Positions 3,891 through 56,132 are shown, counted from the first letter of the stretch. The stretch is 64,000 bases of DNA from an uncultured Gammaproteobacteria bacterium (GCA_964588165.1 CAZPMS010000001.1:164722-228721); one strand, 5' to 3'. The notes: generated by a model from the sequence alone, not told the origin. Numbers and translations are program-made.

Positions 3891-5663
3891 TTATTTTTCA
3901 AACATAATACAACTATTATTATAAGAATTCATTATCTTTGCTCCAATATTATCAAAATCTTTAATATTTCTAACAGGATTTCTGACCCAAACACCATTTT
4001 CTCTATAATTTACCCATAATTTAAATACATTAAACTCAATCTCAAGAAAAGAATATTTAGTTTTATAAATAACCCTTTTCTTCGTAATTACTTCTTCAAC
4101 ATCTTTTATGCCTAATAAAAACCTTCTTATATTACCGAATAAATTATGAACTTCCATAATAACTCTTCTGTTAATTAATTCACCAAGCACATATTGGTCG
4201 CCGATTTTCCTCTTTAATAGTTTTCCTTTATTGATTAATCTTGAATTTACGTTAAAATTTATTTTTTCATACTTTAAATCAAAATTAAACTTAATATATC
4301 TAATTGACTCCGAATTTGAATCTAAACTTTGATTATTAAACTCATTTTTATTAATTGCAGGAATAGAACAGTATAACTTTAAATAATTTTTATAAACAAT
4401 AACTTTTTCAATAATTGACCTTATTATTTCCCTTTTTTGTTTAAAACTTAAACAGCTTAAAGAATTTTTATACTCAACTAATAATAATTTGTGAAAATTA
4501 TAACTTTTAAAATACAAATCCTTATCAATATAGCTATAAAGTGACTCTGGTCTAGTTAATAACTCTTTAACCTTATACCAAACAACATCATCAAGTATAC
4601 ATGTTCTAATTTGTATAGCTGGACATAATTTATCAGTTTTAAATTTTCTCTTATTAGTGCAAATATAATATTTAGTTCGATAAAAATGTTTTTTCTTAAA
4701 ATGGTTTTGTATTGATCTTGTATACGCGCGCCCACAAATGCCACATTTTAAAATTGAACGCAATAATGAATCACTAACTTTTTTAAAATTTTCTCTACTT
4801 TTAAATCTGCTATCTCTTATACTCTCTGCTCTAATAAAAACTTTTTTATCAATAATTTTGGGAACATTAATTTTTATCCAGTCTTCTTTCGGTCTTAAAA
4901 TTTTTCTAGCTCTAAATTTACTCCTGTCAGCATATTTCCTAAAATAAGTTTCACCAGTATACGCCTCATTTCTTAGTACGTGGTATATTGTATTCTGATC
5001 CCAAAATATTTTTTTATTTTTTTTCTTATGCGTACGCCTGTATGCATATTTTGTAGAAATTTTCATACCAATAATTGTTTTTTGTATTCTTCCTACGCCC
5101 ATACCTTTATTAATAAATAAATGATAAATTAGTTTTACTATCTCTGCTTCCTTTTTATTTATTATTAAATTTTTATTTTTTCTGTTGTAACCAAATGGGA
5201 CACTTCCGAACCAAGTACCTTTGTTCATAGATTTAATCATGCCGCCCACATTTCTTTCTTTGATAAGATTGCGTTCAAATTCAGCAAATGCTGATAATGT
5301 TGAAATAATTAATTTTCCAGTAGTTGTAGCTACTTCAAACGGCTCACTTACACTCCTTACTTCTATTCCTAAATTATTTAACTCGGCGATTAAATTTAAA
5401 AACATTATTTGATTCCGGGCTAATCTATCAATTCTATAAAAAACAAGGGCATCAAATTTTTTTTCTCTTGCTTCTTTTATTAATTGAGTTAATTGCGTTC
5501 TTTTTAATACATAGCCGCTCTCACCTTCCTCTCTAAATAATTTATAAAACTCCCAACCTTTTAATTCAATAAATTTTTTACAACTTTCAAACTGATTTTC
5601 TAAAGAAAATCCCTTAATTTGTTCGTCTGAGCTAACGCGGGTATATATTGCTGCTTTTTTCAT
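3891..5663 (-). CDS. Large serine recombinase (resolvase/invertase N-terminal catalytic domain plus recombinase domain and Cys-rich zinc ribbon)
   Basis: N-terminus MKKAAIYTRVSSDEQ carries the catalytic Ser motif of serine recombinases. 590 aa with Cys pairs (CGICG...C...C) typical of large serine recombinases/phage integrases. Confidence 0.85.
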   Translation of the reverse strand: MKKAAIYTRVSSDEQIKGFSLENQFESCKKFIELKGWEFYKLFREEGESGYVLKRTQLTQLIKEAREKKFDALVFYRIDRLARNQIMFLNLIAELNNLGIEVRSVSEPFEVATTTGKLIISTLSAFAEFERNLIKERNVGGMIKSMNKGTWFGSVPFGYNRKNKNLIINKKEAEIVKLIYHLFINKGMGVGRIQKTIIGMKISTKYAYRRTHKKKNKKIFWDQNTIYHVLRNEAYTGETYFRKYADRSKFRARKILRPKEDWIKINVPKIIDKKVFIRAESIRDSRFKSRENFKKVSDSLLRSILKCGICGRAYTRSIQNHFKKKHFYRTKYYICTNKRKFKTDKLCPAIQIRTCILDDVVWYKVKELLTRPESLYSYIDKDLYFKSYNFHKLLLVEYKNSLSCLSFKQKREIIRSIIEKVIVYKNYLKLYCSIPAINKNEFNNQSLDSNSESIRYIKFNFDLKYEKINFNVNSRLINKGKLLKRKIGDQYVLGELINRRVIMEVHNLFGNIRRFLLGIKDVEEVITKKRVIYKTKYSFLEIEFNVFKLWVNYRENGVWVRNPVRNIKDFDNIGAKIMNSYNNSCIMFEK

Positions 5664-7911: not shown

Positions 7912-7967
7912 ATATTAACAAATAAAAATTGATGAATAATGATTGATTAATTTTTAATTATTATTTT

Positions 7968-8663: not shown

Positions 8664-8679
8664 ATGGCACTAATAACCC

Positions 8680-8790
8680 ACCGATCTATCACTGATGAAG
8701 CGCTGATTAATCACTGATATTAATATCGGTGAGCCATCTGTGATATATCCGTGATAGCTCAGCGTATATCCGTGATTTATCCGTGGTACT
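8680..8790. repeat. Interspersed palindromic repeat element, copy A (inverted relative to copies B and C)
   Basis: Reverse complement of 8680-8765 is near-identical to 13270-13352 (gagctatcac(a/g)gatata...ctcaccgatattaatatcagtgattaatcagcgcttcatcagtgatagatcggtgg). The internal palindromes caccgat/atcggtg, tgattaatca and atattaatat, and three ~10-bp tatccgtgat sub-repeats, are all seen directly in the sequence. Confidence 0.8.
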
Positions 8791-8863
8791 TTAATTCATT
8801 TTAGCAATAAAACACTAATCTGACTATTACTTAAAAGACCCGCCGATGAGGCGGGCCTCCTTA

Positions 8864-9643
8864 TTATAAACTAATTCTGATAAATCGTTCAACTTTTGCT
8901 TCACCCAAATATTTTTCTATTGTTAGCTTATCATCCTTTATATACTGTTGTTTTATTAAACAAACTTCGGCGTAAAATTTTTGGACCTTTCCTTCAAGAA
9001 TTTTTTCCAGCATTTCTTCGGGTTTATCTTCCTTCTTTAATTGTTCCCTGTAAATTTCTTTTTCCTTTTCTAAAACGTCTGCCGGAACATCTTCTGGTTT
9101 TAAGTAGGTTGGGTTCATAGCAGCTACATGCATAGCTACATCTTTGGCTTTTTCTTCGTCACCGCCAGTTAAAACAACTACAGAAGCGATTTTATTATTG
9201 GCATGCAAATAGCTTCCTATAATCTCTCCAGCTGAGCTGGATTCAATAATATCAAAACCGCCCAACTTTATATTTTCACCTATTTTAACAATTAAATTAT
9301 TCTGGATTTCTGCCTCGGCCCATTTGGCAAATTCATCTTTGCCAACTTCCAAAAGTTTTTTAGAAAATATATCTACGGCCGAAATAAAATTTTCGTTTCT
9401 GGCTACAAAATCCGTTTCACAAGCTAAAGCCACCACTGCAATTTTATTTCCTTCTTGATGCATAGCCACCAAACCTTCATTAGTGGAACGTTCGGCTTTT
9501 TTGGCTGCAATTTTTTGGCCAGATTTTCTTAAAATTTCTACGGCACCAGTTTCGTCTCCGCCAGCTTCATCCAAAGCCTTTTTAATATCTCCAATGCCAG
9601 CGCCGGTTTCGTCTCTTAATTTTTTTATAATTTCTAATGACAT
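8864..9643 (-). CDS. tsf: Elongation factor Ts
   Basis: N-terminal UBA-like MSLEIIKKLRDETGAGIGDIKKAL; rpsB-tsf-pyrH synteny. Confidence 0.9.
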   Translation of the reverse strand: MSLEIIKKLRDETGAGIGDIKKALDEAGGDETGAVEILRKSGQKIAAKKAERSTNEGLVAMHQEGNKIAVVALACETDFVARNENFISAVDIFSKKLLEVGKDEFAKWAEAEIQNNLIVKIGENIKLGGFDIIESSSAGEIIGSYLHANNKIASVVVLTGGDEEKAKDVAMHVAAMNPTYLKPEDVPADVLEKEKEIYREQLKKEDKPEEMLEKILEGKVQKFYAEVCLIKQQYIKDDKLTIEKYLGEAKVERFIRISL

Positions 9644-9661
9644 TTGATTATTGATTATGGC

Positions 9662-10357
9662 TTATTGATTATTGATTTCTGCTTTCCCCTCATTTACAGC
9701 CTCGGCAACTGAATTAGTGATTAAATTAATAGATTTCACAGCATCATCATTGGCTGGAATAGGATACTTGATATCTTTTGGATTAACGTTGGTATCAACC
9801 ATAGCCAGCATAGGCACTTTCTTTTTAGCTGCCTCGGCTACTGCGCTTTTATCTTTTTTAATATCTACCACAAACATGGCTTCCGGCAATCTGGACATTT
9901 CTTTAATGCCACCAACTAAATCATTAAGTTTGGTAATTTCTCTGGTAAAATCCAGCTGTTCTTTCTTTGTATATTTTTCCAATTCACCAGTCCGCTTTTT
10001 TTCTTCCAATTCTTTAAGCCTTTTAGTTAATTTAATGATGTTGGTAAAATTAGTAAATGTTCCGCCCAGCCATCTGGAATTAATATAAGGCATGCCACAG
10101 CTTTCTGCAGCCGTTTTAATTATTTCTTTAGCTTGTTTTTTTGAAGAAATAAAAAGGACTACTCCGCCTTTGGAAGCAATCTCTTTAACAAAATCTAAAG
10201 CCTCTTTCAGCTTTTCTGCTGTCTGCTCTAGATCAATGATACTTATCCTGTTACGGGTGGTATGAACATACTTGCCCATTTTAGGATATTTTTTTGAAGA
10301 TTGATGGCCAAAATGCACACCGGCCTTAAGCATCTCCAATAATTCTGGGGTTTTCAT
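9662..10357 (-). CDS. rpsB: 30S ribosomal protein S2
   Basis: MKTPELLEMLKAGVHFGHQ, the conserved S2 N-terminus. Confidence 0.95.
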   Translation of the reverse strand: MKTPELLEMLKAGVHFGHQSSKKYPKMGKYVHTTRNRISIIDLEQTAEKLKEALDFVKEIASKGGVVLFISSKKQAKEIIKTAAESCGMPYINSRWLGGTFTNFTNIIKLTKRLKELEEKKRTGELEKYTKKEQLDFTREITKLNDLVGGIKEMSRLPEAMFVVDIKKDKSAVAEAAKKKVPMLAMVDTNVNPKDIKYPIPANDDAVKSINLITNSVAEAVNEGKAEINNQ

Positions 10358-10646
10358 AATTTTTTCCTTTCTATCAAGCTAAGCTTGATACCTCCATTCC
10401 CGCTTTCGTTCTAATGAACGCAAGGAAAATATGGGAATGTGAGAGATAGTTAATAATCATGTATCGTATATCGTTTTTCGTATATCCTTATTTTTATTGA
10501 ACTTTATGGATACACTATACACAAAATACGTTACATGAAAAGATTTTAACACAATAGCCTATTTTTGGCAAGGCTATAACCTTAGGGATTGACAAAACAA
10601 CCTTCATTTAATAACCTAAGGGCGAAAGATAAAAGCTCATTCACAT

Positions 10647-11087
10647 TTGGAGTTACAAATGATCAAGAAATTGATAGTCAGCCTTGGCTGCCTAATACTC
10701 GTTGGCCTGCTGGTAAGCCTTTTTTTCGGCTCACAAATAGAAGGAATGTATAAATTTGTAACTACTTGCTATAGCTACTTTGACGCCGAAATGCAAACCG
10801 TAATAAATGACATGGTAATCTTTGGCGCCTCAATAGCATTAATATTTGCGGCAGTAATGGCATTTATTGGTAAAATGATTAAAGGAATTATCCCTCTTGG
10901 CTACTTTTTGATTTCGACAGCCATGATATGTTTCTCTTCTGTGTTTTTAAAAGTACCCGGAGGTTCGCTGGTGATGGTCGTACTTTTGGCCTCCTTTGGT
11001 ATTTCCAGTGTTATTTCCTTCTTATTGTTCTACCTAATATTTAGAACAATACCCAAACATAAACACCAATTATTCTACCCCGCTTGA
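10647..11087 (+). CDS. Small integral membrane protein (4 predicted TM), paralog 1 of a tandem family
   Basis: 146 aa, four hydrophobic segments, C-terminal KHKHQ...P motif shared with paralogs 2 and 3; followed by a hairpin terminator. Confidence 0.5.
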   Translation: MELQMIKKLIVSLGCLILVGLLVSLFFGSQIEGMYKFVTTCYSYFDAEMQTVINDMVIFGASIALIFAAVMAFIGKMIKGIIPLGYFLISTAMICFSSVFLKVPGGSLVMVVLLASFGISSVISFLLFYLIFRTIPKHKHQLFYPA

Positions 11088-11195
11088 AACAAAACGGGGT
11101 TTTTTCTTTGTTAAATAATTGACAAAATAATCAATTATAAACTAATATACTATATAAGCATAGAACATTCACAAGATAGATAAGGAGAAGTAAAG

Positions 11196-11636
11196 ATGAG
11201 GAAACAATGGTTTAAATTCGCCTTCGTCCTTGGGATACTGGTTATAATCGGATACTTTGTGTTCTCTCCAGTCATGGAGTGGTACAATGGTTTCAGTCAA
11301 TACAAACAAACATCTGCAATTCTTATCTTAACCTCTGCGTGTATTTCTGGCTTGATCATGGGTATAATCGTCGGCCTGAACACTAAGCAAAGTGAATTCT
11401 TAAAACCTGATAAATTGATTGCTAAACTTTTTATCTGGGAAGTGTTCGGTCTTGCGATTAGCTTTATTATTATTACTGGTTTTCTTTTTTTTGTAGATCG
11501 GATTAGCGGAGCTATTGAAATAGATATTATTCACATTTCCAGCTTTTCCATTATCTACTTAACCACTTCCTCCCTGGTCTATTTGATTAAGGAAACAATG
11601 TCAAAACATCACCAACCAATACTTGACCCTGTCTGA
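11196..11636 (+). CDS. Small integral membrane protein, paralog 2
   Basis: 146 aa, same architecture, C-terminal SKHHQPILDPV. GGAGAAG RBS. Its upstream roughly 100-bp promoter/UTR is near-identical to that of paralog 3. Confidence 0.5.
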   Translation: MRKQWFKFAFVLGILVIIGYFVFSPVMEWYNGFSQYKQTSAILILTSACISGLIMGIIVGLNTKQSEFLKPDKLIAKLFIWEVFGLAISFIIITGFLFFVDRISGAIEIDIIHISSFSIIYLTTSSLVYLIKETMSKHHQPILDPV

Positions 11637-11771
11637 TCTTTTCTATCCACAAATCCCCCCGTTTGGAAATTCAAGCGGGGTTTTTTCTTTGTTAAATAAT
11701 TGACAATATAAATTTTTTATAGTTAACTATCAATATAGAACATTCACAAACGTAGTGAGAAGGAGAAAACC

Positions 11772-12191
11772 ATGTTGATCAAATGGATTATCTACTTAGC
11801 TAGCCTTTTTGCTTTATTCCTATTCAAAGATCCCATATCATCTTTTGTAATAGATTCGTATGGTGATCTTAATCAAGTAGAACAAAAATTCATAACTGAT
11901 GGTTTTATATTTTGTGCGATCATTGGCATATTTAGTGCTACACTCACCGGTTTAGCACTTATTAAACCTCTAATTGATGTAAAAAGATGCCTTTATGCTG
12001 GAATAATACTGGGCTTAATATTTGGCTTCAGCCTTGGCATGACTTTTATCTCGTCCAAACAAAGCTTTAATATTGGTTTAACCGCTGGTTCAATATATCT
12101 TATAAGCCATTTAATTATTTTCTTCTCTATTTATTTAATAAATGAAACGGTAAAACACTATCGCCATAAGGCCCAGCCATTCCTAGTCTGA
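11772..12191 (+). CDS. Small integral membrane protein, paralog 3
   Basis: 139 aa, C-terminal VKHYRHKAQPFLV; AGGAGAA RBS; own promoter and terminator. Confidence 0.5.
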   Translation: MLIKWIIYLASLFALFLFKDPISSFVIDSYGDLNQVEQKFITDGFIFCAIIGIFSATLTGLALIKPLIDVKRCLYAGIILGLIFGFSLGMTFISSKQSFNIGLTAGSIYLISHLIIFFSIYLINETVKHYRHKAQPFLV

Positions 12192-12285
12192 AAGCAGTTC
12201 TATCCACTTACAACACCCTAAGTTATACAAAACTTGGGGGTTTTTCTTTTTAAAAAAATTAAATAAGTGATATAATGAATTTTGT

Positions 12286-12681
12286 ATGAAACAATCTTTT
12301 TGGCAAAATTTGCCCATTTTAAGATTTTTAGCCGGCTTTTGGGGCTGGGTTACCATGCTCCTGTTTATTGTTGATTTTTTTAGCCACCATCTGCTTTCTG
12401 AAGGTATAACTACGGCAGCTGTAATTTATGGCGCTATTTTAGCTATGTACGCAGGCTCTAAAGAATACAAGCGTTGGCAACAAAAAAAGAACTATAAATC
12501 CGACCATTTTGGTGAACTATATATTATTACCTGGACCCTGGTAATGGTAATCTTTGTGGCTTTAACCTTTTTACTTAGCGGTTACTACAAAATCCCCGGT
12601 GAATTTCCAGCTGTTTATTTAACAGTTTTATCAGTTTTTATCCTTTCCAGGGAATCCAAATCATTTATTGCTAAAAGTTAA
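12286..12681 (+). CDS. Small integral membrane protein, a divergent fourth member of the array
   Basis: 131 aa, 3-4 TM segments, preceded by a hairpin plus T-run terminator of the previous unit. Confidence 0.4.
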   Translation: MKQSFWQNLPILRFLAGFWGWVTMLLFIVDFFSHHLLSEGITTAAVIYGAILAMYAGSKEYKRWQQKKNYKSDHFGELYIITWTLVMVIFVALTFLLSGYYKIPGEFPAVYLTVLSVFILSRESKSFIAKS

Positions 12682-12690
12682 TTATCAATA

Positions 12691-12765
12691 GCTCACCGAT
12701 ATTAATATCAGTGATTAATCAGCGCTTCATCAGTGATAGATCGGTGGTTTATCAGTGACTATAGT
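12691..12765. repeat. Interspersed palindromic repeat element, copy B (direct with copy C)
   Basis: gctcaccgatattaatatcagtgattaatcagcgcttcatcagtgatagatcggtggtttatcagt, identical over about 70 bp to 13290-13358. Confidence 0.8.
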
Positions 12766-12821
12766 TTGACTCATAGTAAATAATTGATTAAAATCAAATA
12801 AATAATTAATCAAAAGCGATT

Positions 12822-13247
12822 ATGATGTCTAAAAACAAGCCTCTTTTTTTGTTGGAGGAAAAATTAACTTACAAATTAAGAGGGATTTTTATTGAAATTA
12901 GTAAACAACATGGTTGTTTATTTAAAGAAAAGGTCTATCAAAAAATAATTATTGATGAATTTCAAAATAAAAACGTTAAATTTGAATCCCAGCCAAGAAT
13001 TTCTATATATAACTTAATTACAGGTAAAGAAATTGGTTACTATTCCCCAGATTTTCTAGTAGAAAATAAAGTAATTGTCGAAATAAAAGCTCAGGGTCAA
13101 ATCTATAATAGTCATATTAATCAACTGATTAAATACTTAAATTCTACAAAATTTGAAATTGGACTAATAGTGAACTTCGGAACTCCAATGGTTCAAATTA
13201 TTAGAAAAATATTTACAAACGACAAAAAATCATTTATTCACAAATAA
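12822..13247 (+). CDS. GxxExxY-family / PD-(D/E)XK nuclease-like small protein
   Basis: HGCLFKEKVYQK (G..E..Y-like) motif plus PDFLVENKVIVEIKA (D...E.K) typical of the GxxExxY PD-(D/E)XK family. 141 aa. Flanked by direct repeat copies B and C. Confidence 0.5.
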   Translation: MMSKNKPLFLLEEKLTYKLRGIFIEISKQHGCLFKEKVYQKIIIDEFQNKNVKFESQPRISIYNLITGKEIGYYSPDFLVENKVIVEIKAQGQIYNSHINQLIKYLNSTKFEIGLIVNFGTPMVQIIRKIFTNDKKSFIHK

Positions 13248-13358
13248 ATCACAGATATTCACGGAGCTATCACAGATATACCACAGATGGCTCACCGATA
13301 TTAATATCAGTGATTAATCAGCGCTTCATCAGTGATAGATCGGTGGTTTATCAGTAGT
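13247..13358. repeat. Interspersed palindromic repeat element, copy C. It includes three atcacagata sub-repeats and lies just 5' of the rpmE promoter.
   Basis: Sequence identity to copy B and to the reverse complement of copy A. A TTGACA-17-TAGAAT promoter for rpmE follows at about 13355-13385. Confidence 0.8.
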
Positions 13359-13708: not shown

Positions 13709-13851
13709 CAGTTTATTTTTAATAAAAAGTTCTTGTAATTCAGGAACTTTTTTGTATTTTATGATAGAATAATAATTGATGACTAATAATTAATAACTGA
13801 TTAAATCTGTGAAATACCTTTGCGATTTTATCATTTTGCGTTTTTGCGATT

Positions 13852-24409: not shown

Positions 24410-25555
24410 ATGATGAATGAACCCCTAAAACCGGTTTCTAAAATAAAATCCAGCTATCAAAATCTGATTGTTGTTTTTATAATATTGGCCATTATTTTAA
24501 TTGGCGTGATTCTTTATTTCGCCCTTTCTCAGGCAACTGTAAATATTACTCCTTTTTACAACCAGCAAAGGGTCGGTTTTGCCATCCAAATTGTTGATAA
24601 AAATAATTTATCTCCCAATGAAAATTTTGTAGAAAAATTACCGGGTGAAATTTTAGAGATAGCCATAGAAGACAGCCAAACTTTTAAAGCTACAATTTAT
24701 GAAGAAACACAGAGCAAGGCTTCCGGTTTGGTAACAATTTATAATACCCATAATAGCAATCAAAAATTAGTAGCTACCACTAGGCTACTCACCGCCGATG
24801 GTAAACTTTATAGAATTACTGATTTTGTAGAAGTACCAGCCGGTGGACAAGTAACAGTGCTGGCTGTGGCTGATCAAGAAGGCGGCAAATTTGAAATCGG
24901 TTCGGCCAAGCTAACAATCCCCGGCTTATGGGAACCCCTCCAAGAAAAAATTTACGCCCAAACCAAAGGCTTTAAAATCCAGAGTATTACTAAATACAAA
25001 ATTGACCAGCCAGTTATAGATAACGCCCGCCTAGAGCTGACTAAAAAAATTAGTGAAGCTGCCATTGTTGAGCTATCTGAACTATTGCCGCCCGGCCAAA
25101 AAATTTCGGAACAGGCTTTAGTTTTTGAAACCATTAAATACTCAACTGATGCCGAGCTTGATTCAACAGCTAAAGAGTTTAATATGACATTAGGCTTAGG
25201 TGTAAAAGCTGTTATTTTTGACGAGGCAGAGCTTAAAAAAATCGCCTCCTCTAATCTTCCAGAAATTTTTATAACCAACAACGCCTTGGTTAATGTTGAT
25301 CCTGAAAGTTTTATTTATGAAATAATTTTACTTGATGAAAATTCCGAAAATCTTATTGCCCAAATAAAAGGCGATTACGTAATTGAAATTTCTAATGTAA
25401 AGATTGATCCTTCGGAACTTACCGGCCTTTCTAAAACTGAAGCTAAAAAATATTTAGAAAATTTAAGCGATGTTAAAGAGGCTTCTATTTCTTTACCTTT
25501 TTGGACAAAATTTTTACCGCCACTTACAGATAAAATTAACATTGAAATTAAGTAA
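24410..25555 (+). CDS. Hypothetical membrane-anchored extracytoplasmic protein
   Basis: 381 aa, single N-terminal TM (LIVVFIILAIILIGVILYFAL), no recognised motif. Confidence 0.4.
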   Translation: MMNEPLKPVSKIKSSYQNLIVVFIILAIILIGVILYFALSQATVNITPFYNQQRVGFAIQIVDKNNLSPNENFVEKLPGEILEIAIEDSQTFKATIYEETQSKASGLVTIYNTHNSNQKLVATTRLLTADGKLYRITDFVEVPAGGQVTVLAVADQEGGKFEIGSAKLTIPGLWEPLQEKIYAQTKGFKIQSITKYKIDQPVIDNARLELTKKISEAAIVELSELLPPGQKISEQALVFETIKYSTDAELDSTAKEFNMTLGLGVKAVIFDEAELKKIASSNLPEIFITNNALVNVDPESFIYEIILLDENSENLIAQIKGDYVIEISNVKIDPSELTGLSKTEAKKYLENLSDVKEASISLPFWTKFLPPLTDKINIEIK

Positions 25556-25678
25556 TAATAATTAAAAACTGATGATTAATAAATCGTCAGTTTTTTTATA
25601 AAAGAAAAAAGGTGCCCTAGTTATAAAAACTTGAACACCTTGGATTGTTACTTTCTAACTCAAAGAACTAAACGGAAA

Positions 25679-26317
25679 CTACTCTGGATGAGAAAAAACA
25701 GCTTCATAACTGTCTAATCCAGACCAATTATCATCTTCTATACTAACAGCGCTCAAACACCAGCCACCCTGCTCAAAAAACAATATTACCCAAAATTTGG
25801 ATTCTTCAAGGGTGATCAAAAATTTATTCTGTAATCCGTCAACCAACAATATTCCTGATTCCCCTTCTGGCTGTTGTTCCATTAAAAAATAAATCTCTGA
25901 TAGTGACACTCTTGCAATATCCTCACCGCCCAAATCTTCAACAACGGATATTCCAAGCATGTGACCTAGAGACTTAGAACAATGAATAGTTGAAGCCTCG
26001 CAAGCTTCTTCAGGGTAAGAACTTAATAAACTCATAAAGCTACCATTAACACGGTTGATACTCACCCCAGATTCGGGATGAACACCGGGCACAAACCAAT
26101 CCTGAGGTTTAAACATTCCATCACGCTTTGGAATATCTGTAAACTCAACAAACCTGAGGTTGAAAGGATTTTCCTTGCGCAAAAATTTACCCAAGTCTTT
26201 AAACCACCTCTTGGCATTCTTGCCACGAAGCTTTTCAACCAGGTCATACAATGTACCCAAATATTCTTTGGGTAATGGCACGAGCAGGCGAACAACAGAA
26301 CCGAGCATGTCTTTCAT
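25679..26317 (-). CDS. Hypothetical protein in a GC-richer islet
   Basis: 212 aa; AAGGAA RBS; codon usage and GC differ from neighbours. Confidence 0.4.
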   Translation of the reverse strand: MKDMLGSVVRLLVPLPKEYLGTLYDLVEKLRGKNAKRWFKDLGKFLRKENPFNLRFVEFTDIPKRDGMFKPQDWFVPGVHPESGVSINRVNGSFMSLLSSYPEEACEASTIHCSKSLGHMLGISVVEDLGGEDIARVSLSEIYFLMEQQPEGESGILLVDGLQNKFLITLEESKFWVILFFEQGGWCLSAVSIEDDNWSGLDSYEAVFSHPE

Positions 26318-26406
26318 GGTCAGTTTCCTTCGTTACTTTTTTTACCGTCTTTTTGGCAGACGATCAGCCTTTGTAAATGAGCTACTTTATGTAATAAACT
26401 AGTATA

Positions 26407-26694
26407 TCATTTTATTAAATTCTCGTCAATATTATAGTTTTTATAAAAAACACCCATACCATGAAAATTCATGATACGGGTTTTTGATTCCTCCGGTATT
26501 TGTTGTAATTGTTTTGGTGAAGATACCGGCGATAGCTCTTGTTCGAGCTCATGGGAAGATGGGACATTCAAAGCAACACAAAGTGCAATGACAATCACCG
26601 AAATAATTATTATAATGCCAGTATACTTTGCAGCCCGATCCCAACGCCTTGGATCATCCTTTGGCCTATCTAAGGCCCATGAATTTCTATTCAT
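26407..26694 (-). CDS. Hypothetical small membrane protein in a GC-richer islet
   Basis: 95 aa, one TM (GIIIIISVIVIALCVAL); GGAGG Shine-Dalgarno 6 nt upstream of the ATG. Confidence 0.4.
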   Translation of the reverse strand: MNRNSWALDRPKDDPRRWDRAAKYTGIIIIISVIVIALCVALNVPSSHELEQELSPVSSPKQLQQIPEESKTRIMNFHGMGVFYKNYNIDENLIK

Positions 26695-26768: not shown

Positions 26769-27165
26769 TTGCTTTTCATTCAAAAATAATCTATAATTAT
26801 ACTTACCTAAATGATTGAGTAGTTTACCAACCTGCGTCCCGATGTTCGCTAACAGCGAAATCGGGTCCGAGGACTCCGATGAGTCTCGGACTCCATCGGA
26901 GATCCCGACTTTACATCGGGACTAAGTTTAGGTGACAATTTAAATAAGAGGGTTGATATTTTATCAAAAAATCTTTTAATCAACTAATCTTCCTATCTTT
27001 GATTTTTCAATGGAAGACTAAATGACTAAAAGATTAAATGATTATATTAAGAATTAGTATGATAATTATCAATCAAGTCAGGTGGAACCGCGGAAAGTTT
27101 ATACTTAAACCTTTCGTCCTGAGAATATCAAAATTGGTATTTTAAGGATGAGGGGTTTTTAAATT
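26769..27165 (+). promoter_or_regulatory. T-box riboswitch leader of thrS. Components: a TTGCTT-17-TATAAT promoter at 26769-26797, a GC-rich multi-hairpin Stem I candidate at 26836-26922, the T-box sequence at 27078-27093, and a terminator hairpin plus U5 at 27110-27160.
   Basis: Seen directly: ucAGGUGGAACCGCGG fits the conserved T-box motif AGGGUGGNACCGCGG. The downstream CCUUUCGUCCU...AGGAUGAGGGG helix (GU wobbles allowed) followed by UUUUU is an alternative terminator. The roughly 430-nt leader directly precedes thrS, a classic T-box-regulated gene. Confidence 0.55.
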
Positions 27166-27234
27166 GATTATTAATGAATGATGACTGATGATTAGCAATT
27201 AATCATTGATCATCAATTATTAATTTTTAACATT

Positions 27235-29043
27235 ATGAAAAATAATACACAAATAGAAAATCAAGCTCAGCTAGAAAAAGTCAGGCACTCCATATCTCAT
27301 TTAATGAGCATGGCGATAATTGAACTTTATCCTAAAACCGGCCTTGGCGTCGGACCTTTTATTGAAAATGGTTTTTATCAAGACTATGATTTGTCTGAAC
27401 CAATTTCTGAAGAAATCCTGCCCAAGCTGGAAAAAAGAATCAAAGAGTTAATTAAACAAGATATTAAATTTGAACAGCATGCCATGGATTTTAAAGAAGC
27501 CTTAAAAGAATATAAACATGATCCGTATAAAACTGAGATGATTGAAAATTTAAAAAAAGACGGAGAAAAAAACGTAAGTTTTTATAAATCCGATTGGTTT
27601 GAAAATTTATGCAAAGGCCCCCACGTAAAATCTACCAAAGAAATTGACCCCAGGGCTTTTAAACTTACCTCCATTGCAGGAGCTTATTGGCGTGGTGATG
27701 AAAAAAATAAAATGCTTACCCGAATTTACGGTGTTGCCTTTGAATCAAAAAATAAACTTAATGACTATTTAAAAATGGTAGAAGAAGCCAAAAAACGCGA
27801 CCACCGGAAAATCGGCAAAGATCTGGATTTATTCACTTTTTCCGAAACTGTAGGTAAAGGCTTGCCACTCTGGACCGAAAAAGGCGCCGTTATAAAACGC
27901 GAACTGGAAAATTTTATAATAAACGAAGAATTAAAACGCGGCTATAAACATGTAGTAACTCCAGATATGGCCAGGGTGGCTCTTTATAAAAAATCAGGCC
28001 ACTATCCTTACTATAAAGATTCCATGTATCCGCCAATTAAACTGGATGAAGAAGAATTCATGCTAAGGCCCATGGCTTGTCCTCACCATTTTGAGCTTTA
28101 TTTAAGCAAACCCCGCAGTTACCGCGATCTGCCACTTAGAATCGCCGAGTTGGCTAAGCTATACCGTTACGAAAAATCTGGTGAACTGACCGGCCTAATG
28201 AGAGTAAGAAATTTCTGTTTGGCTGATTCGCATATAATTTGCGCAGATAGCAAACAGGCCAAAGACGAAATAAATAATGTTTTAAATTTAATAGAATATG
28301 TGGCCGGAGTTTTTGGACTAAAATCAGGCAAAGATTATTCTTACAGATTTTCTTTAGGTGATAGAAAAAATGATAAAAAATATTACAAAGATAATAAAGC
28401 TTGGGATAGCGCCGAAAAAAACCTTAAAGCTGTTTTAGATAAAAGAAAAAGTAAATATGTAATAGCTCCAGATGAAGCGGCCTTTTACGGCCCTAAGGTT
28501 GATATCCAGATGAAAAACGTCATGGGCAAGGAAGACACCGCCTTTACTGTACAGTACGATTTTGTAATGCCAAAAAGATTCAACCTAACCTATACCAATA
28601 AAAAGGGAGATAATCAGGAGGCTATTGTTATCCACCGCTCTTCTATTGGCGCCATAGAAAGAAGCGTAGCCTTTTTAATTGAACATTTTGCCGGCAACTT
28701 CCCGTTATGGCTCTGCCCTATCCAAGTTAAAATAATTTCGGTTGGCTCGGACCATAAAAAGTTCTGCCAGAAATTAGCTAATAAATTAATAGCAGAAGGC
28801 TTGCGCGTAGAAACTGACTTGATAAATGAAACTGTTGGTAAAAAAATCAGAAATGCTTCTAAAGAAAAAATTCCTTACACCTTGGTAATTGGTGATAAAG
28901 AACTAAAATCCCTGCCTGCTGGCAGGCAAGGTGATAAGTTGGCTGTAAGAGTTAGGGGCGAAGAAAAACTATTGGAAATTGATTATGCTAAATTCGTTAA
29001 GAAGCTAAAGAAACTGATATCTGAAAAATCTCTTGGATTATGA
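27235..29043 (+). CDS. thrS: Threonyl-tRNA synthetase
   Basis: Class II aaRS motifs (FRNFCLADSH, HRSSIGAIER), anticodon-binding C-terminus; 602 aa, so a short form lacking part of the N-terminal extension. Confidence 0.95.
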   Translation: MKNNTQIENQAQLEKVRHSISHLMSMAIIELYPKTGLGVGPFIENGFYQDYDLSEPISEEILPKLEKRIKELIKQDIKFEQHAMDFKEALKEYKHDPYKTEMIENLKKDGEKNVSFYKSDWFENLCKGPHVKSTKEIDPRAFKLTSIAGAYWRGDEKNKMLTRIYGVAFESKNKLNDYLKMVEEAKKRDHRKIGKDLDLFTFSETVGKGLPLWTEKGAVIKRELENFIINEELKRGYKHVVTPDMARVALYKKSGHYPYYKDSMYPPIKLDEEEFMLRPMACPHHFELYLSKPRSYRDLPLRIAELAKLYRYEKSGELTGLMRVRNFCLADSHIICADSKQAKDEINNVLNLIEYVAGVFGLKSGKDYSYRFSLGDRKNDKKYYKDNKAWDSAEKNLKAVLDKRKSKYVIAPDEAAFYGPKVDIQMKNVMGKEDTAFTVQYDFVMPKRFNLTYTNKKGDNQEAIVIHRSSIGAIERSVAFLIEHFAGNFPLWLCPIQVKIISVGSDHKKFCQKLANKLIAEGLRVETDLINETVGKKIRNASKEKIPYTLVIGDKELKSLPAGRQGDKLAVRVRGEEKLLEIDYAKFVKKLKKLISEKSLGL

Positions 29044-29375
29044 CCAAACAACTTAAATATTATATCTGGGCGCTGGGTTGCGCCATGAATAAAGCAGATG
29101 GCGAACGTATCGCCACTGTTTTAGATTCTGCAGATTACATTCAGGTTGATTCTGAAAACAAAGCTGATTTTATTATGGTAGTAGCTTGCTCTGTTAGGCA
29201 ATCAGGAATTGATAGAATCTTGGGTAAATTTAATGTATGGAAAAAGAAAGGCATTAAAACAATAATAACCGGTTGCGTTTTAGATTTAGATAGGCCTAAA
29301 ATGGAAAAACTATTTGATTTGGTTTTTGATATTAAAGATTTAGAAAAACTACCAAATTTGATTAAAAATTTATAA
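29040..29375 (+). CDS. miaB: MiaB-like methylthiotransferase, N-terminal MTTase domain fragment (split gene or pseudogene)
   Basis: YYIWALGCAMNKADGE matches the MTTase N-domain (ETLGCQMN-type). Ends at a TAA that is in frame with the following radical-SAM ORF. Confidence 0.6.
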   Translation: MTKQLKYYIWALGCAMNKADGERIATVLDSADYIQVDSENKADFIMVVACSVRQSGIDRILGKFNVWKKKGIKTIITGCVLDLDRPKMEKLFDLVFDIKDLEKLPNLIKNL

Positions 29376-29429
29376 TATCTGCGAAATATCCGCGGGTCAT
29401 CCGCGGGTCATCCGCGGGTCATCCGCGAT

Positions 29430-30341
29430 ATGAATAAAATAGAATACCTAGAAATAAATCCAAAACACTCTTCAAAATATAAAGCCAACGTGCCAATTTC
29501 TTTTGGGTGTAATAATTTTTGCACTTACTGCGCCGTGCCTTATACCCGCGGTAAAGAAATCTCCAGGCCTTCAGCAAAAATTATTGAAGAATGCAAAAAA
29601 TTAATAAATGACGGTTATAAAGAAATTACTTTGCTGGGCCAAAATGTAAATAGCTATGGTTTAGATTTAGATGACGAGATCAAATTTCCTGAATTATTAA
29701 AAGGAGTTGATGAAATTGAAGGTGATTTTTGGATCCGCTATACCTCTCCCCACCCTAAAGATATGAGTGATAAATTAATACAAATCATGGCCAAAGGCAA
29801 GCATATCTGCAAACAATTGAATCTGCCAATGCAGTCTGGCGATGATGAAATTTTAAAACGCATGAACCGGACTTACACTAGTCAGCATTATTTAGATCTG
29901 GTTGCTAAAATCAAACAAGCCATGCCAAATATTTTTCTATCTACCGATATTATTGTAGGTTTTCCCGGTGAAACTAAAAAACAGTTTAATAATACAGCCA
30001 AACTGTTTAAACAAGTCGGTTTTAGCATGGCCTATGTTGCCCAGTTCTCTCCCCGTCCGGGAACCCCAGCCGCCAAAATGCCGGATAATGTAACTAAAGC
30101 AGAAAAAAAACGCCGTGAAGAAAAACTGAATAAAATTTTAAAAAAATCAGCTTTAAAAATTAACAAAAAATTATTAAATAAAAAAATTTTAGTTTTAGTT
30201 GATGGGCGCGGTATTGGACGAAACGAATTTTTAACCAAAGTTACCTTTAAAGGTTCCCATGATTTAATCGGTCAGTTTTTAAAGATAAAAATAACCAAAG
30301 CTAAAAGCTTTGGTTTAGAAGGATCGATCGCTGAAAACTGA
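29430..30341 (+). CDS. miaB: MiaB-like methylthiotransferase, radical SAM plus TRAM domains
   Basis: CNNFCTYCAVPYTRG (CxxxCxxC radical SAM), C-terminal TRAM-like region; same frame as 29040..29375. Confidence 0.7.
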   Translation: MNKIEYLEINPKHSSKYKANVPISFGCNNFCTYCAVPYTRGKEISRPSAKIIEECKKLINDGYKEITLLGQNVNSYGLDLDDEIKFPELLKGVDEIEGDFWIRYTSPHPKDMSDKLIQIMAKGKHICKQLNLPMQSGDDEILKRMNRTYTSQHYLDLVAKIKQAMPNIFLSTDIIVGFPGETKKQFNNTAKLFKQVGFSMAYVAQFSPRPGTPAAKMPDNVTKAEKKRREEKLNKILKKSALKINKKLLNKKILVLVDGRGIGRNEFLTKVTFKGSHDLIGQFLKIKITKAKSFGLEGSIAEN

Positions 30342-45548: not shown

Positions 45549-46094
45549 TTATATTTTTTTAATCTGAAGTGAATCAAGCTCAACCGGTGTTTCACGGCCA
45601 AACATGGTAACCAATACTTTAATTTTACCTTTAGATTCATCAACTTCAGAAACTTTACCCTCAAAATCTTTAAAAGGTCCGTCAATAATTTTAACTGGCG
45701 AACCAACAGAAACATCCACTTTATAAGTTGGCTCTTCTACGCCCATTCTTCTTTGCAGTTCGGCTACTTCTTCTTCAGAAATAGGTGTTGGAGTTGTTCC
45801 AGAGCCTACAAAGCCTGTAACGTTAGGCGTGTTCCTTACTACATACCAAGAATCATCAGTTACAATCATATTAACTAAAACATAACCGGGAAAGATCTTT
45901 TCTCTAACTGTGCTCCTTTTTCCGTTCCTGATTTTAATTTTAGTTTCGGTTGGCACTAAAACATCAAAGATTTTATCTTCCATATCCATAGATTCAATAC
46001 GCTGTTTTAAATTTCTGGTTACATTTTCTTCATAGCCGGAATAAGTATGTAAAACATACCAGCGTTTTCCTTGTTGTAAAGTTTGCTTTGGCAT
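45549..46094 (-). CDS. nusG: Transcription termination/antitermination factor NusG
   Basis: WYVLHTYSGYEENV NGN domain and C-terminal KOW; 181 aa; secE-nusG-rplK order. Confidence 0.9.
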   Translation of the reverse strand: MPKQTLQQGKRWYVLHTYSGYEENVTRNLKQRIESMDMEDKIFDVLVPTETKIKIRNGKRSTVREKIFPGYVLVNMIVTDDSWYVVRNTPNVTGFVGSGTTPTPISEEEVAELQRRMGVEEPTYKVDVSVGSPVKIIDGPFKDFEGKVSEVDESKGKIKVLVTMFGRETPVELDSLQIKKI

Positions 46095-46164
46095 AATAAT
46101 TATTACTAAAAATTGAAAATTAATGATTAATTAACTAATTTATAAATCATTATTCATCATTAAA

Positions 46165-46552: not shown

Positions 46553-46656
46553 CTACAAATTACTAATCTATACAAATATACTAATAATTCCAATTCGTAT
46601 ATTTAGTAACTATTGGTAGATTAGTATATTAGTAATAATTCGTAATTAGTAATTGT
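46553..46656. repeat. TACTAAT/ATTCGTAT-rich intergenic element, copy 1 (immediately 5' of the ArsR-family gene)
   Basis: attactaatctatacaaatatactaataatt..aattcgtatatttagtaa...agtaataattcgtaattagtaat. Closely related to 49566-49640 and 56053-56132. Confidence 0.75.
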
Positions 46657-46947
46657 ATGACATTAAATAATACTTTTAAGGCTTTATCTGACCCTACCCG
46701 CAGGAAAATCTTGGAACTTCTGAAAAAAAAAGATATGTCGGCCGGCGCTATTGCCGAGCATTTTAAGATTACCCTACCCTCTTTAACCCACCATTTTAAT
46801 ATTTTAAAGCAGGCTGATTTAATTACCCAAGAAAGGCAGGGCCAACAAATAATCTATTCACTAAACTTAACTGTTTTAGATGAATTAATTGATAAATATT
46901 TTAATTTGTTTTCCGCCAAAGGCGGATCGGCCTCTGGTCGAAAATAA
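46657..46947 (+). CDS. ArsR/SmtB-family transcriptional regulator (SdpR-like)
   Basis: LSDPTRRKILELL...AIAEHFKITLPSLTHHFNILKQADL winged-HTH signature. Confidence 0.75.
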   Translation: MTLNNTFKALSDPTRRKILELLKKKDMSAGAIAEHFKITLPSLTHHFNILKQADLITQERQGQQIIYSLNLTVLDELIDKYFNLFSAKGGSASGRK

Positions 46948-49565: not shown

Positions 49566-49638
49566 CTACAAATTACTAATTACTACTAATATACAAATAA
49601 TTCGTATATTTGTACAGATTCATAACTAGTAGTAATAA

Positions 49639-53590: not shown

Positions 53591-56047
53591 CTAACGGACT
53601 TCTATTTTAAATTTCTTTTTTAAAATATCAATAATTTTATCCCTTAAGTTATCTGCCTCTTCTGAAGTTAAGGTCTTTTTTTCATCCAAAAAATCTACAT
53701 GGAAAGCTAAAGATTTTTTATCGGTTCCGAATTTGCCTTTTTGGTAAATATCAAATAGCTCTACCCGCTTAATTAATTTACTTACATCCATAACTTCTTT
53801 CCTTATGTCTGCCCAAGCTGTTTTAGAAGGCACCAAAATTGAAAAATCGTAAATTATGCCGGGGTACTTTGGCAACTGTTGATACTTTTTACTTTCATGA
53901 GTATATTTTAGTAAACCAGCTGAATTTAATTGCCAAACCGCTACCGATTTTTTAACATCTAATTTGGATAAAACTTTATTATTTAATTCTGCCAGCCAGC
54001 CTAAAACTTCGTCGCCTGCTTTTATTTCTAGATAACTTTTATTATCTAACCAGTTAATCTGGCATTTGGACTGATTGTTGTAACTATAATTAATTTCTAA
54101 ATTGGCAAGCAATAATTCAACTAAGCCTTTAGCCTGTAAAAATACATTTTCATCATTAACTATTAAGCCGGCCAGCATTTTTGGCTGGCGTCCTAAAAAT
54201 TCCTTACTATCTTTTTTTGCCTGATGCTCCCCTTTTTCTTTTAGATAGACCCTGCCCAGTTCAAAAATATTAAATTCACCATAAAATCTTAAATTATCTT
54301 CTAAGTTTATGGTTAAATTTTCAAATAAAGTTGTTCGCAAAAATTTTTGGTGTTCGGAAAAATAATTTTGCAATTGATAATGGTCGCCGGCAGATGTTCC
54401 TAAAATATCCAAATTTTTCTGGCCGGTAAAGGAATAGTTATAAATCTCAGTAGAACCGCCTGCCAGAGTTAAAATTTGCCTTATTTTGCGGTCTAAAGCC
54501 TGATCTAGGTTATCTGCAGGCGGCTCCATGGAAATAAAAGGCATAAGCGGCTTTATATTATCAAAGCCGTAAATCCTGACTACTTCTTCCACTAAATCTT
54601 CTTGAATGGAAATACTTTTATTGGTTCTAAAATCGGGCCTTTCAACCAATAATTTTTCGCCTTTATCTTTAACCTTAAATGACAAACTTTCTAAAATTTT
54701 TATAACTTCTTTTTTAGGAATCTCCTGGCCGATGCGCCTGTTTAAAAAATCGAGATCCAATTCAATTTCTTTTTTTAAATCTTCATCAAAGTTTACATCA
54801 ACAACTTTGCTGATTAATTTAGCTTCCGGAATTAATTCAAAAATTAAAGTAATAATTCTATCAAGGCCCAGTTTGGCCAAAGAAGGAGCTAAACCCTTTT
54901 CAAACCTGGCAGCAGCATCGGTTCTAAGGCCCAAGGCAGTTGAGGTTTTTCTGATATTTGTCGAATTGAAATTTGCCAGCTCTAATAAAATTTCAGTTGT
55001 GTCTTCCTTTACTTCGGAATTTTCACCGCCCATAATGCCCCCTAGATCAATCGGCCTTTTGGCATCACAAACTAAACACATATTTGAAGTTAATTTTCTT
55101 TCCTGCCCATCTAAAGTTTTAAATTTTTCTCCCTGTTTGGCTTTCCTGATAATTATAGTATCCCTCTCCACGTCTCTTCTATCAAAAACATGTGAAGGCC
55201 GGCCAAGTTCTAACATTACATAATTGGTAATATCTACAATATTATTTATTGGTCTTACGCCAACGGCCTTTAATAAATTTTGCATCCATAAAGGCGAGGG
55301 TCCGATCTTTATATCTCCAACTAGCGCGCCAATATATCTTGTGCAGTTTTCTTTATCTTCAATTTTTATTTTCAAATCTGCTCCTTTGCCCTCTTTATAA
55401 TTTTTAAATTCCAAATCTTTTGCTTTGGTTCCTAAAATGGCAGCTACTTCTCTGGCCATGCCATGGTGGCCCCATAAATCTGAACGATGGGTAATGGATT
55501 TATTGTCTATATCAAAAATAACGTCATCCAAGCCCAATGCCTCAACTGCCGGCTGACCAGATTTAGCTTCATCACCTAAATCGATCACCCCCTCTTCCTT
55601 GCCCGCCATAGCCTTGGCAAAGGAGGGCTCATTAAATTCATCAGACACTAAAGCAACTTCTGAGGGCGCACAAAGCATACCATTGGATTCTACTCCCCTT
55701 ATCTTTGTTTTTTCTAGCTTAACTAAATCACCCTGTCCGTGCCATTTAACTAAAGCCCCTGATAAGGCTAAAACGCCTTTCATGCCTTTATAAATATTAT
55801 CTGCCCCGCAAATAACCTGATATTCTTCTTTACCAGCTTTAACTTTGCAAACTTTAAGCTTATCGGCGTTGGGATGATCCACAATATTAACTATTTCACC
55901 AACAACCATATTTTTATATTGACTTTTTTGGTCAATAACTTCTTCTACTTCTACTGTAGACATGGTCAATTTTAAGGCCAGCTCCTCGGGTGAGAGATCT
56001 TTAGGAATATCTACATATTGTTTTAACCAATTAAGTGAAATTTTCAT
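53591..56047 (-). CDS. pheT: Phenylalanyl-tRNA synthetase beta subunit
   Basis: 818 aa; N-terminal tRNA-binding domain (MKISLNWLKQYVDIP), B3/4 and B5 domains; downstream of pheS. Confidence 0.95.
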   Translation of the reverse strand: MKISLNWLKQYVDIPKDLSPEELALKLTMSTVEVEEVIDQKSQYKNMVVGEIVNIVDHPNADKLKVCKVKAGKEEYQVICGADNIYKGMKGVLALSGALVKWHGQGDLVKLEKTKIRGVESNGMLCAPSEVALVSDEFNEPSFAKAMAGKEEGVIDLGDEAKSGQPAVEALGLDDVIFDIDNKSITHRSDLWGHHGMAREVAAILGTKAKDLEFKNYKEGKGADLKIKIEDKENCTRYIGALVGDIKIGPSPLWMQNLLKAVGVRPINNIVDITNYVMLELGRPSHVFDRRDVERDTIIIRKAKQGEKFKTLDGQERKLTSNMCLVCDAKRPIDLGGIMGGENSEVKEDTTEILLELANFNSTNIRKTSTALGLRTDAAARFEKGLAPSLAKLGLDRIITLIFELIPEAKLISKVVDVNFDEDLKKEIELDLDFLNRRIGQEIPKKEVIKILESLSFKVKDKGEKLLVERPDFRTNKSISIQEDLVEEVVRIYGFDNIKPLMPFISMEPPADNLDQALDRKIRQILTLAGGSTEIYNYSFTGQKNLDILGTSAGDHYQLQNYFSEHQKFLRTTLFENLTINLEDNLRFYGEFNIFELGRVYLKEKGEHQAKKDSKEFLGRQPKMLAGLIVNDENVFLQAKGLVELLLANLEINYSYNNQSKCQINWLDNKSYLEIKAGDEVLGWLAELNNKVLSKLDVKKSVAVWQLNSAGLLKYTHESKKYQQLPKYPGIIYDFSILVPSKTAWADIRKEVMDVSKLIKRVELFDIYQKGKFGTDKKSLAFHVDFLDEKKTLTSEEADNLRDKIIDILKKKFKIEVR

Positions 56048-56052
56048 AATAA

Positions 56053-56132
56053 GTCTACGAATTACTAATCTATACGAATATACTAATAATTTGTAATTCG
56101 TATATTAGTAATTATTCGTACATTAGTAGTAA
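56053..56132. repeat. TACTAAT/ATTCGTAT-rich intergenic element, copy 3 (fills the 85-bp pheS-pheT spacer)
   Basis: ctacgaattactaatctatacgaatatactaataatttgtaattcgtatattagtaattattcgtacattagtagtaat. Confidence 0.75.

Follow-up and report, generated by a model that had tools for sequence, protein, structure and literature searches.

What occupies the 540-nt gap between a divergent 95-aa open reading frame (ORF; 26407-26694, minus strand) and thrS, the gene for threonyl-tRNA synthetase (ThrRS), and how might it act on the gene that follows? The gap lies in a 64,000-nucleotide stretch of DNA labelled as an uncultured Gammaproteobacteria bacterium (GCA_964588165.1 CAZPMS010000001.1:164722-228721), referred to here as the window, whose composition is AT-rich (~35% GC). 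The nearest relatives of its ThrRS, at 64-70% identity, all belong to the Patescibacteria or Candidate Phyla Radiation (CPR), namely Komeilibacteria, Falkowbacteria, Buchananbacteria and Magasanikbacteria, and the genome that carries this thrS leader is itself patescibacterial. The gene order ftsW, dnaE, thrS, miaB, miaA, gatB, tmk, thyA, DHFR is common to the window and a 21.8-kb stretch from one relative. The sequence elements, alternative folds, conservation with covariation and linkage to thrS observed in this gap, over the 430 nt directly 5' of the gene, very probably belong to a transcription attenuator of the T-box family that sets thrS expression by the charging of tRNA-Thr, with a four-way-junction decoding domain rather than a canonical Stem I. 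T-boxes are the best-understood RNA-RNA sensing switches.

An earlier note on this sequence had proposed a T-box-type thrS leader, and the core, the UGGA bulge and the competing terminator on which it relied are all present; every string it quoted was found, with coordinates shifted by 1-2 nt (its T-box 20-mer occupies 27078-27097 and not 27076-27097). The downstream half of the leader and the gene that it precedes comprise the following features:

27078 to 27122, plus strand: antiterminator, with the core AGGUGGAACCGCGG at 27080-27093, the bulge UGGAACC at 27083-27089, helix A1 at 27078-82/27118-22 and helix A2 at 27090-97/27110-17 (Rfam posterior ~1, minimum free energy (MFE) folding, covariation)
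27107 to 27160, plus strand: intrinsic terminator, a 23-bp hairpin with its core at 27110-27155, followed by UUUUU at 27156-27160 (RNAfold; near-identical in the relative L107)
27235 to 29043, plus strand: thrS, encoding a ThrRS of 602 aa, the gene proposed to be regulated (Pfam tRNA_SAD, tRNA-synt_2b and HGTP_anticodon)

The core AGGUGGAACCGCGG matches the conserved T-box sequence AGGGUGGNACCGCG and is aligned with posterior ~1 to Rfam family RF00230. With the 3' strand of the terminator left out, RNAfold gives the antiterminator at 27078-27122 a free energy of -13.4 kcal/mol and places the canonical 7-nt bulge UGGAACC between two helices; the UGGA of this bulge is expected to pair with the 3' UCCA of the tRNA. 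The terminator helix forms between CCUUUCGUCCU (27110-27120) and AGGAUGAGGGG (27145-27155), is extended by RNAfold to a 23-bp hairpin at 27107-27158 (-26.7 kcal/mol) and ends in a U run 75 nt before the thrS ATG. Antiterminator and terminator overlap at 27107-27122, the 5' strand of the terminator being the 3' strand of the antiterminator, and are thus mutually exclusive, in keeping with the competition proposed earlier.

Comparison with related thrS leaders, drawn from a sample of 117 thrS-centred loci (given L numbers), shows that the T-box match is not isolated. Across 17 distinct leaders, pairing in the A1 and A2 helices reaches 94.8%, compensatory changes support 7 of 9 pairs, none of 500 shuffles scores as high, and UGGAACC is invariant. 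Most CPR thrS leaders that have the core (>11) likewise fold into an antiterminator bulged by 7 nt and a terminator that overlaps it, a comparison based on unconstrained folds only. The closest leader, L107, has a terminator near-identical to that of the window and lacks both of the inserts described below. UGGA is carried by every thrS T-box sampled, including all those from Firmicutes and Chloroflexi. One relative, L006 (1376-1400), has the core GAUGGAACC in place of GGUGGAACC, with CC changed to UC on the partner strand; the change is compensatory (UCC on the opposite strand matches) and falls within an otherwise invariant A1 helix. Two further GGTGGAACC strings in the window (37487 and 42991) were rejected as T-boxes, as they lie inside coding regions, gatB and a 96-aa ORF.

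Upstream of this module the leader contains a candidate decoding domain, built from a basal helix, P1, and a codon-bearing hairpin, P2:

26805 to 26818, plus strand: 5' strand of the basal helix, consisting of P1a ACCUAAAU (26805-26812), a GA bulge (26813-26814) and P1b UUGA (26815-26818) (RNAfold, covariation)
26819 to 26835, plus strand: P2 specifier hairpin, with stem GUAG/CUGC and loop UUUACCAAC, ACC at 26826-26828 and the purine A26829 (covariation, leave-one-out model)
26922 to 26933, plus strand: 3' strand of the basal helix, CUAA (P1b, 26922-26925) and GUUUAGGU (P1a, 26926-26933) (RNAfold, covariation)

P1a pairs 26805-26812 with 26926-26933 (RNAfold). This 5' module is common to at least 12 CPR leaders (window, L107, L083, L086, L116, L109, L001, L101, L093, L010, L108 and L112), in the order promoter, P1a, a 2-nt bulge (GA or UA), P1b UUGR/CUAA, P2, P3 and P4, and the return strand of P1. 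P3 and P4 in the relatives are two short, sequence-variable hairpins with arms of 3-8 bp and a total of ~21-37 nt, and the four-way junction P1-P2-P3-P4 emerges from unconstrained MFE folding in most of them. Over 10 leaders, aligned as modules trimmed by hand around the proposed helices, P1 and P2 pair at 85%, with compensatory changes in 12 of 17 pairs, and 0 of 500 shuffles reach the observed covariation, a signal that collapses when the partners are slid by one column. Trimming by hand was used because a whole-leader MAFFT alignment (window, L107 and L116) misaligned the 5' half owing to the inserts; the invariant anchors GAUUG and ACC leave the hand-trimmed alignment little freedom. Compensatory changes affect 6 of 8 pairs of P1a (10 leaders) and all 5 stem pairs of P2, where ACC stays invariant though the stem varies; in P1b no leader departs from A-UUG or from the facing C-AA, and 9 of 10 keep the U in between. 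The P2 loop follows the consensus Y-Y-ACC-R-N, with ACC plus R invariant in 14 leaders.

A covariance model of the P1 5' strand and P2, built from nine relatives with the window excluded and searched over the whole 64-kb window on both strands, gave 26805-26835 as its sole significant match (27.1 bits, E = 7.5e-4; next match 12 bits). The same model located two previously unseen sites, in L108 and L112, preceding NUDIX-thrS and GNAT-thrS operons, and GGUGGAACC and a terminator follow ~100 nt after each. These sites are independent confirmation that the 5' module and the T-box module belong together.

The threonine codon ACC at 26826-26828, the sole Thr codon conserved across relatives and one with a purine next to it, is the probable specifier. 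Canonical T-boxes likewise keep a purine 3' of the specifier. ACU and ACA had been put forward for this role; they lie in the GC-rich element, and the conserved codon is found in the hairpin directly 5' of it. The P2 loop is laid out like an anticodon loop (pyrimidine, U, three bases, purine, A), which suggests that it may pair loop-to-loop with the GGU anticodon of tRNA-Thr. A search of all fetched sequence and the window for the same junction bearing another codon before other synthetase genes returned only thrS/ACC cases. A kink-turn (K-turn) reading of GAUUGA/CUAA was rejected by eye, the 3' strand having no GA beside the basal helix and two relatives having UA for GA in the bulge.

Transcription of this domain would start from a promoter at a conserved distance:

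26769 to 26797, plus strand: sigma-70-like promoter, -35 TTGCTT (26769-26774), 17-nt spacer, -10 TATAAT (26792-26797) (sequence, relatives)

This promoter had been identified earlier and its position is conserved: 14 related leaders each have a TTGACA-like/TATAAT-like pair whose end falls 20-27 nt short of the specifier loop, and in the window this distance is 26 nt. It was not listed by a consensus scan because its -35 element matches at only 3 of 6 positions. The transcription start predicted from its position, ~26804-26805, would coincide with the first base of P1.

A mechanism can be proposed from these parts, with tRNA binding and the regulatory outcome taken by analogy from what is known of the family (PMC7583486). 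Transcription would start at ~26805, and the first 130 nt would fold into the P1-closed junction, in which arm P2 would show ACC for pairing with the GGU anticodon of tRNA-Thr. The antiterminator bulge, ~250 nt further on, would use its UGGA to bind the free 3'-terminal UCCA of uncharged tRNA-Thr by base pairing. This pairing would hold the weaker antiterminator (-13.4 kcal/mol) against the terminator (~ -23 to -27 kcal/mol) and permit readthrough into thrS, whereas charged tRNA, making no contact with UGGA, would leave transcription to stop at UUUUU (27156-27160).

T-boxes before thrS are common in the CPR. At ~20 distinct CPR loci the core GGUGGAACC is found 70-200 nt ahead of thrS or of an operon of two genes with thrS as the second. 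Of the CPR thrS loci sampled, roughly half have a T-box core before the gene; L113, L114 and L115 have no leader at all. The two-gene operons that a threonine T-box precedes in some CPR are NUDIX-thrS, GNAT acetyltransferase-thrS and another ORF with thrS (L108, 150-470; L112, 40-350; L090, ~600-930). A longer stem with ACC-A on its 3' side and a T-box that reads GGUGGAACCGUCC mark a second kind of CPR thrS leader (L110, L090, L091, L089 and L022); by eye, L110, L090 and L091 are nearer to a long canonical Stem I, and L110 contains AGAGA and GUUGAGA motifs that recall the canonical platform. These five were undetected by Rfam even at E < 1.

Such leaders largely escape existing models. At the Rfam gathering threshold only three tRNAs were found in the window, and none of 20 CPR thrS loci gave a T-box match, the matches there being tRNAs only. 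In a sensitive scan of the intergenic region, RF00230 was the top match (25.2 bits, E = 0.0013), so that the check proposed earlier gave the expected family at a score under the gathering value. Posteriors are ~1 over the T-box and antiterminator and low (0.2-0.6) in the Stem II columns, which fall on AT-rich insert sequence, and 90 model positions, the entire Stem I, are deleted; the low score arises because of this deletion. CPR leaders reach 23-48 bits or give no match, compared with 99.9 bits for the Firmicute control L009 (RF00230, E-value mode). The earlier note had thought T-box control notable in a CPR-like genome. It is frequent there, at about half of the sampled loci, but it stays below the gathering threshold, and a literature search of incomplete coverage brought up no paper that connects T-boxes with CPR, Patescibacteria, Parcubacteria or Saccharibacteria, so an earlier description is possible. 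The known range of T-boxes covers Firmicutes, Actinobacteria, Chloroflexi, Deinococcus-Thermus and a few Proteobacteria but not the CPR (PMC2494555), and TBDB was built from the Rfam model plus a class II model for Actinobacteria only (PMC7778990).

Between P2 and the CUAA of P1b the window has 87 nt where its relatives have 21-37 nt and L107 has 31 nt, and this stretch is the most stable local structure of the leader:

26836 to 26922, plus strand: GC-rich expansion in the P3/P4 arms (fold -47 kcal/mol, z = -5.3)

The element was delimited exactly in the earlier note, including its closure by GUCCCGAUGU/ACAUCGGGAC; it contains CCGAU twice and AUCGG three times and is ~58% GC in a 35% GC genome. 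Two near-isoenergetic architectures are predicted (-54.2 and -53.8 kcal/mol): one closed element with a 10-bp outer helix, and a series of hairpins H1 (26838-26865), H2 (within 26866-26901) and H3 (26903-26921, loop CUUUACA). In the serial fold, the H3 loop resembles the P4 loop UUUACA of L107 and matches it in position. With two architectures within 0.4 kcal/mol and an MFE frequency of 0.03, the fold ensemble is heterogeneous. No second copy was found in the 64-kb window or in 116 loci (exact and 1-mismatch seeds, repeat finder, blastn-short), and no conserved triplet, T-loop or AG-bulge motif occurs in it. Since it is absent elsewhere and contains no conserved triplet, it is therefore assigned to an expansion of the P3/P4 arms and not to Stem I or a specifier, and it is probably only a local expansion of these two side arms. 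A reading as a repeated palindromic or miniature mobile element was dropped for want of another copy, the genome having been searched within the window.

It is unlikely, if worth weighing, that the GC-rich element has a function of its own within the T-box, either as a rigid arm replacing the elbow platform or as a protein-binding or stabilising module. Its stability and its departure from genomic composition speak for such a role, as does the fact that its arms adjoin the codon-presenting hairpin, and GC-rich peripheral hairpins are inserted in other CPR leaders too (L083, L001, L110 in the antiterminator loop, L022 in Stem I). But it has no homologue in the relatives, and so no conservation or covariation to support it; the relatives manage with arms of 3-8 bp, no T-loop or AG-bulge motif is present, and the fold ensemble is heterogeneous.

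The leader is also expanded towards its 3' end, and a further hairpin stands before the gene:

26934 to 26950, plus strand: linker GACAAUUUAAAUAAGAG, counterpart of GACAAUU...GAGUG before Stem III in the relatives and of the Rfam AGUG (leaders compared, Rfam consensus)
26951 to 27074, plus strand: expanded Stem III, GGUUGAUA (26951-26958) paired with UAUCAAUC (27067-27074) around a 108-nt AT-rich multi-hairpin insert (assigned by position, not by covariation)
27170 to 27228, plus strand: second AT-rich hairpin (27170-27224) with a U run (27224-27228) that ends 6 nt before the ATG (-21.1 kcal/mol, z = -4.9); its membership of the T-box is uncertain

The region 26934-27079 has an MFE of -28.1 kcal/mol (z ~ -3.3), and a hairpin of 18-30 nt holds the Stem III position in the relatives. 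Because of the two expansions together, the distance from specifier to T-box is 257 nt in the window, compared with 68-110 nt in relatives. L107 has a shorter hairpin at the same place before the ATG.

A decaying or constitutive leader, in which the two large insertions have disabled ancestral tRNA sensing and left a long 5' untranslated region with a leaky terminator, seems distinctly improbable. The unusual specifier-to-T-box distance would fit it, and so would the condition of the neighbouring miaB, broken by a GC-rich tandem repeat in a genome that evidently tolerates such insertions, and the existence of leaderless relatives (L113, L114 and L115). Against this, all core elements are intact, from P1 and P2 with its ACC-A through the T-box and both antiterminator helices to the terminator and its U run, and the insertions sit at positions that vary in the relatives too (hairpin arms, Stem III loop). 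The terminator is still almost identical to that of L107, and a strong unregulated terminator before an essential single-copy gene would be harmful. Both expansions are peripheral and lineage-specific and leave the core intact.

The version of the earlier note, a canonical T-box whose Stem I would be the 87-nt GC-rich multi-hairpin, with ACU or ACA within it as the specifier, is scarcely tenable. The element does lie between promoter and T-box, is strongly structured and contains both triplets; every related leader, however, has variable hairpins of 21-37 nt instead, none of its triplets is conserved as the ACC and purine of P2 are, and Rfam deletes Stem I without aligning it to the element, in which no AGAGA bulge or distal-loop motif occurs. 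An Escherichia coli-type thrS operator, in which ThrRS would bind an anticodon-arm mimic in its own leader and repress while the T-box-like string is coincidental, can be given practically no credence: there is a hairpin with a 7-nt anticodon-loop-like loop upstream of thrS, but it carries ACC, the complement of the tRNA-Thr anticodon and not its mimic, lies ~400 nt from the start codon rather than beside the ribosome-binding site, and is accompanied by a conserved and covarying T-box, antiterminator and terminator.

The T-box reading of the leader has points of its own to answer. Canonical Stem I and Stem II are both absent from the window leader, and its RF00230 score of 25.2 bits compares with a gathering score of 93. 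The leader is ~150 nt longer than that of any relative, which could impair folding, and the proposed mechanism gives no part to the second terminator-like hairpin, which stands between the T-box terminator and the ATG. The hand-trimmed alignments behind the covariation are biased towards the proposed structure. No tRNA-Thr gene, from which the predicted GGU anticodon and discriminator U73 could be read, occurs in the window (tRNA Ser, Gly and His only), in 55 loci or in the 21.8-kb syntenic stretch.

Around the leader, the window departs in places from its relatives. Two minus-strand ORFs without a Pfam match (212 aa and 95 aa; 25679-26694) separate thrS from a 381-aa gene; L117, the syntenic relative, has nothing but a 247-nt T-box leader between the homologous genes. 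Just 3' of thrS, a miaB-like methylthiotransferase gene (29040-30341) is broken in frame: the ORF with the UPF0004 domain stops at the TAA at 29373-29375, the next 54 nt contain a perfect 11-nt tandem repeat, ATCCGCGGGTC x3.6 (29388-29427), and the part with Radical_SAM and TRAM starts at a new ATG at 29430. Relatives have a single intact gene at this position. The interruption, another GC-rich insertion within an AT-rich genome, could reflect a split gene, a pseudogene or an assembly artefact.

Repeats are found elsewhere in the window as well. AT-rich sequences like AATTGATGAnTAATGATTAAT occur in both orientations in several intergenic regions, often near gene starts (7912-7950, 13750-13801, 25542-25595, 27158-27242 and 46087-46134). 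Long inverted repeats occur close to a large serine recombinase that has Resolvase, Recombinase and zinc-ribbon domains (3891-5663 and 8668-13355); the inverted repeats include 8669-8785 against 13239-13355 (117 nt, 91%) and 12688-12757, and the repeats of the region are composed of 11-nt and 22-nt tandem units, ATCACTGATGA and ATCCGTGATAT. Recombinase and repeats together may represent an integrated or invertible element. The repeat CTACAAATTACTAATCTATACAAATATACTAATAATT, AT-rich and 37 nt long, is present in three intergenic copies at 86-95% identity (46553-46589, 49566-49602 and 56055-56091), beside nusG, gyrB and pheS/pheT, with inverted partners at 46620-46664 and 56110-56150. The operon pheST is commonly under T-box control in Firmicutes; no T-box core was found near pheT (818 aa) and an adjacent 338-aa ORF, presumably pheS (53591-57149).

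Beyond this locus, it is possible, with the chances a little short of even, that CPR thrS leaders constitute a distinct T-box class: terminator-type, with a cloverleaf-like four-way junction in which an arm loop Y-U-ACC-R-A reads the anticodon loop-to-loop, and with no K-turn, platform or Stem II. If so, the view that a long Stem I platform is needed in transcriptional T-boxes would be contradicted, and the CPR would join the groups known to have T-boxes. The platform is held to be necessary for fast co-transcriptional capture of the tRNA, transcriptional T-boxes generally require it, platform-less versions need Stem II, and in its absence variants with a truncated Stem I are poor tRNA binders (PMC7583486). 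In leaders that have neither, yet end in a terminator and are short in the relatives (~200 nt), either a four-way junction with an anticodon-loop-like arm suffices or a further contact exists. The leaders would add the CPR, a huge and little-understood radiation with few known regulators, to the range of T-boxes; the standard Rfam model at threshold misses CPR thrS leaders entirely, and the practical outcome would be a covariance model for annotating the regulation of aminoacyl-tRNA synthetases in CPR genomes.

Among known systems, class I transcriptional T-boxes (RF00230; Bacillus subtilis thrS and thrZ, Firmicute L009) control the same gene; thrS is T-box regulated in nearly all Firmicutes (PMC2494555), as the earlier note implied in calling such control classical there. 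They share with the window the T-box sequence, the 7-nt UGGA bulge, the order AGUG-Stem III-AAAxxA-T-box, the terminator/antiterminator switch with its U run and a Thr codon plus purine as candidate specifier. Unlike them, the window leader has no K-turn, no internal specifier loop with an S-turn, no platform of AG bulge and distal loop, no Stem II and no IIA/B pseudoknot, and it presents its codon on the 5' side, where a hairpin within a P1-closed multi-helix junction holds it in the terminal loop. Where a canonical Stem I was looked for, the 3' strand reads AA or AG rather than GA beside P1, and AGAGA and distal-loop motifs are missing. Most non-glycine T-boxes have Stem II and the IIA/B pseudoknot. 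In the window no Stem II with an S-turn and no IIA/B pseudoknot was recognised, the relatives having only a short linker, and the Stem II S-turn motif GAA...AGUA does not occur in the P3/P4 loops of 12 leaders, which are not conserved.

T-boxes of the glyQS type likewise have no Stem II or IIA/B and a short linker to Stem III, and the CPR relatives run in the same way from decoding domain through short linker and Stem III to antiterminator; glyQS, unlike the window, keeps a long canonical Stem I with a platform, and the window adds its 108-nt Stem III insert. The staphylococcal glyS stem Sa (PMC9177973) offers a parallel for extra hairpins at peripheral loops of a conserved T-box, but the inserts of the window are in the P3/P4 arms and Stem III and not in the terminator/antiterminator, and its GC-rich insert stands in an AT-rich genome, with no conservation seen beyond that one genome. 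The translational T-boxes with an ultrashort Stem I in actinobacterial ileS (Sherwood et al. 2015, as summarised in PMC7583486; class II in TBDB, PMC7778990) act by sequestering the Shine-Dalgarno sequence and rely on Stem II and IIA/B, whereas the expression platform of the window is an intrinsic terminator and its hairpin lies inside a P1-closed junction with two extra arms. Their decoding element nevertheless corresponds to P2 in that a short hairpin bears the specifier in its terminal loop and an elbow platform is absent, and one CPR relative, L111, comes close to the ultrashort Stem I design itself, with a K-turn, 4 bp and the 7-nt loop CCACCAA.

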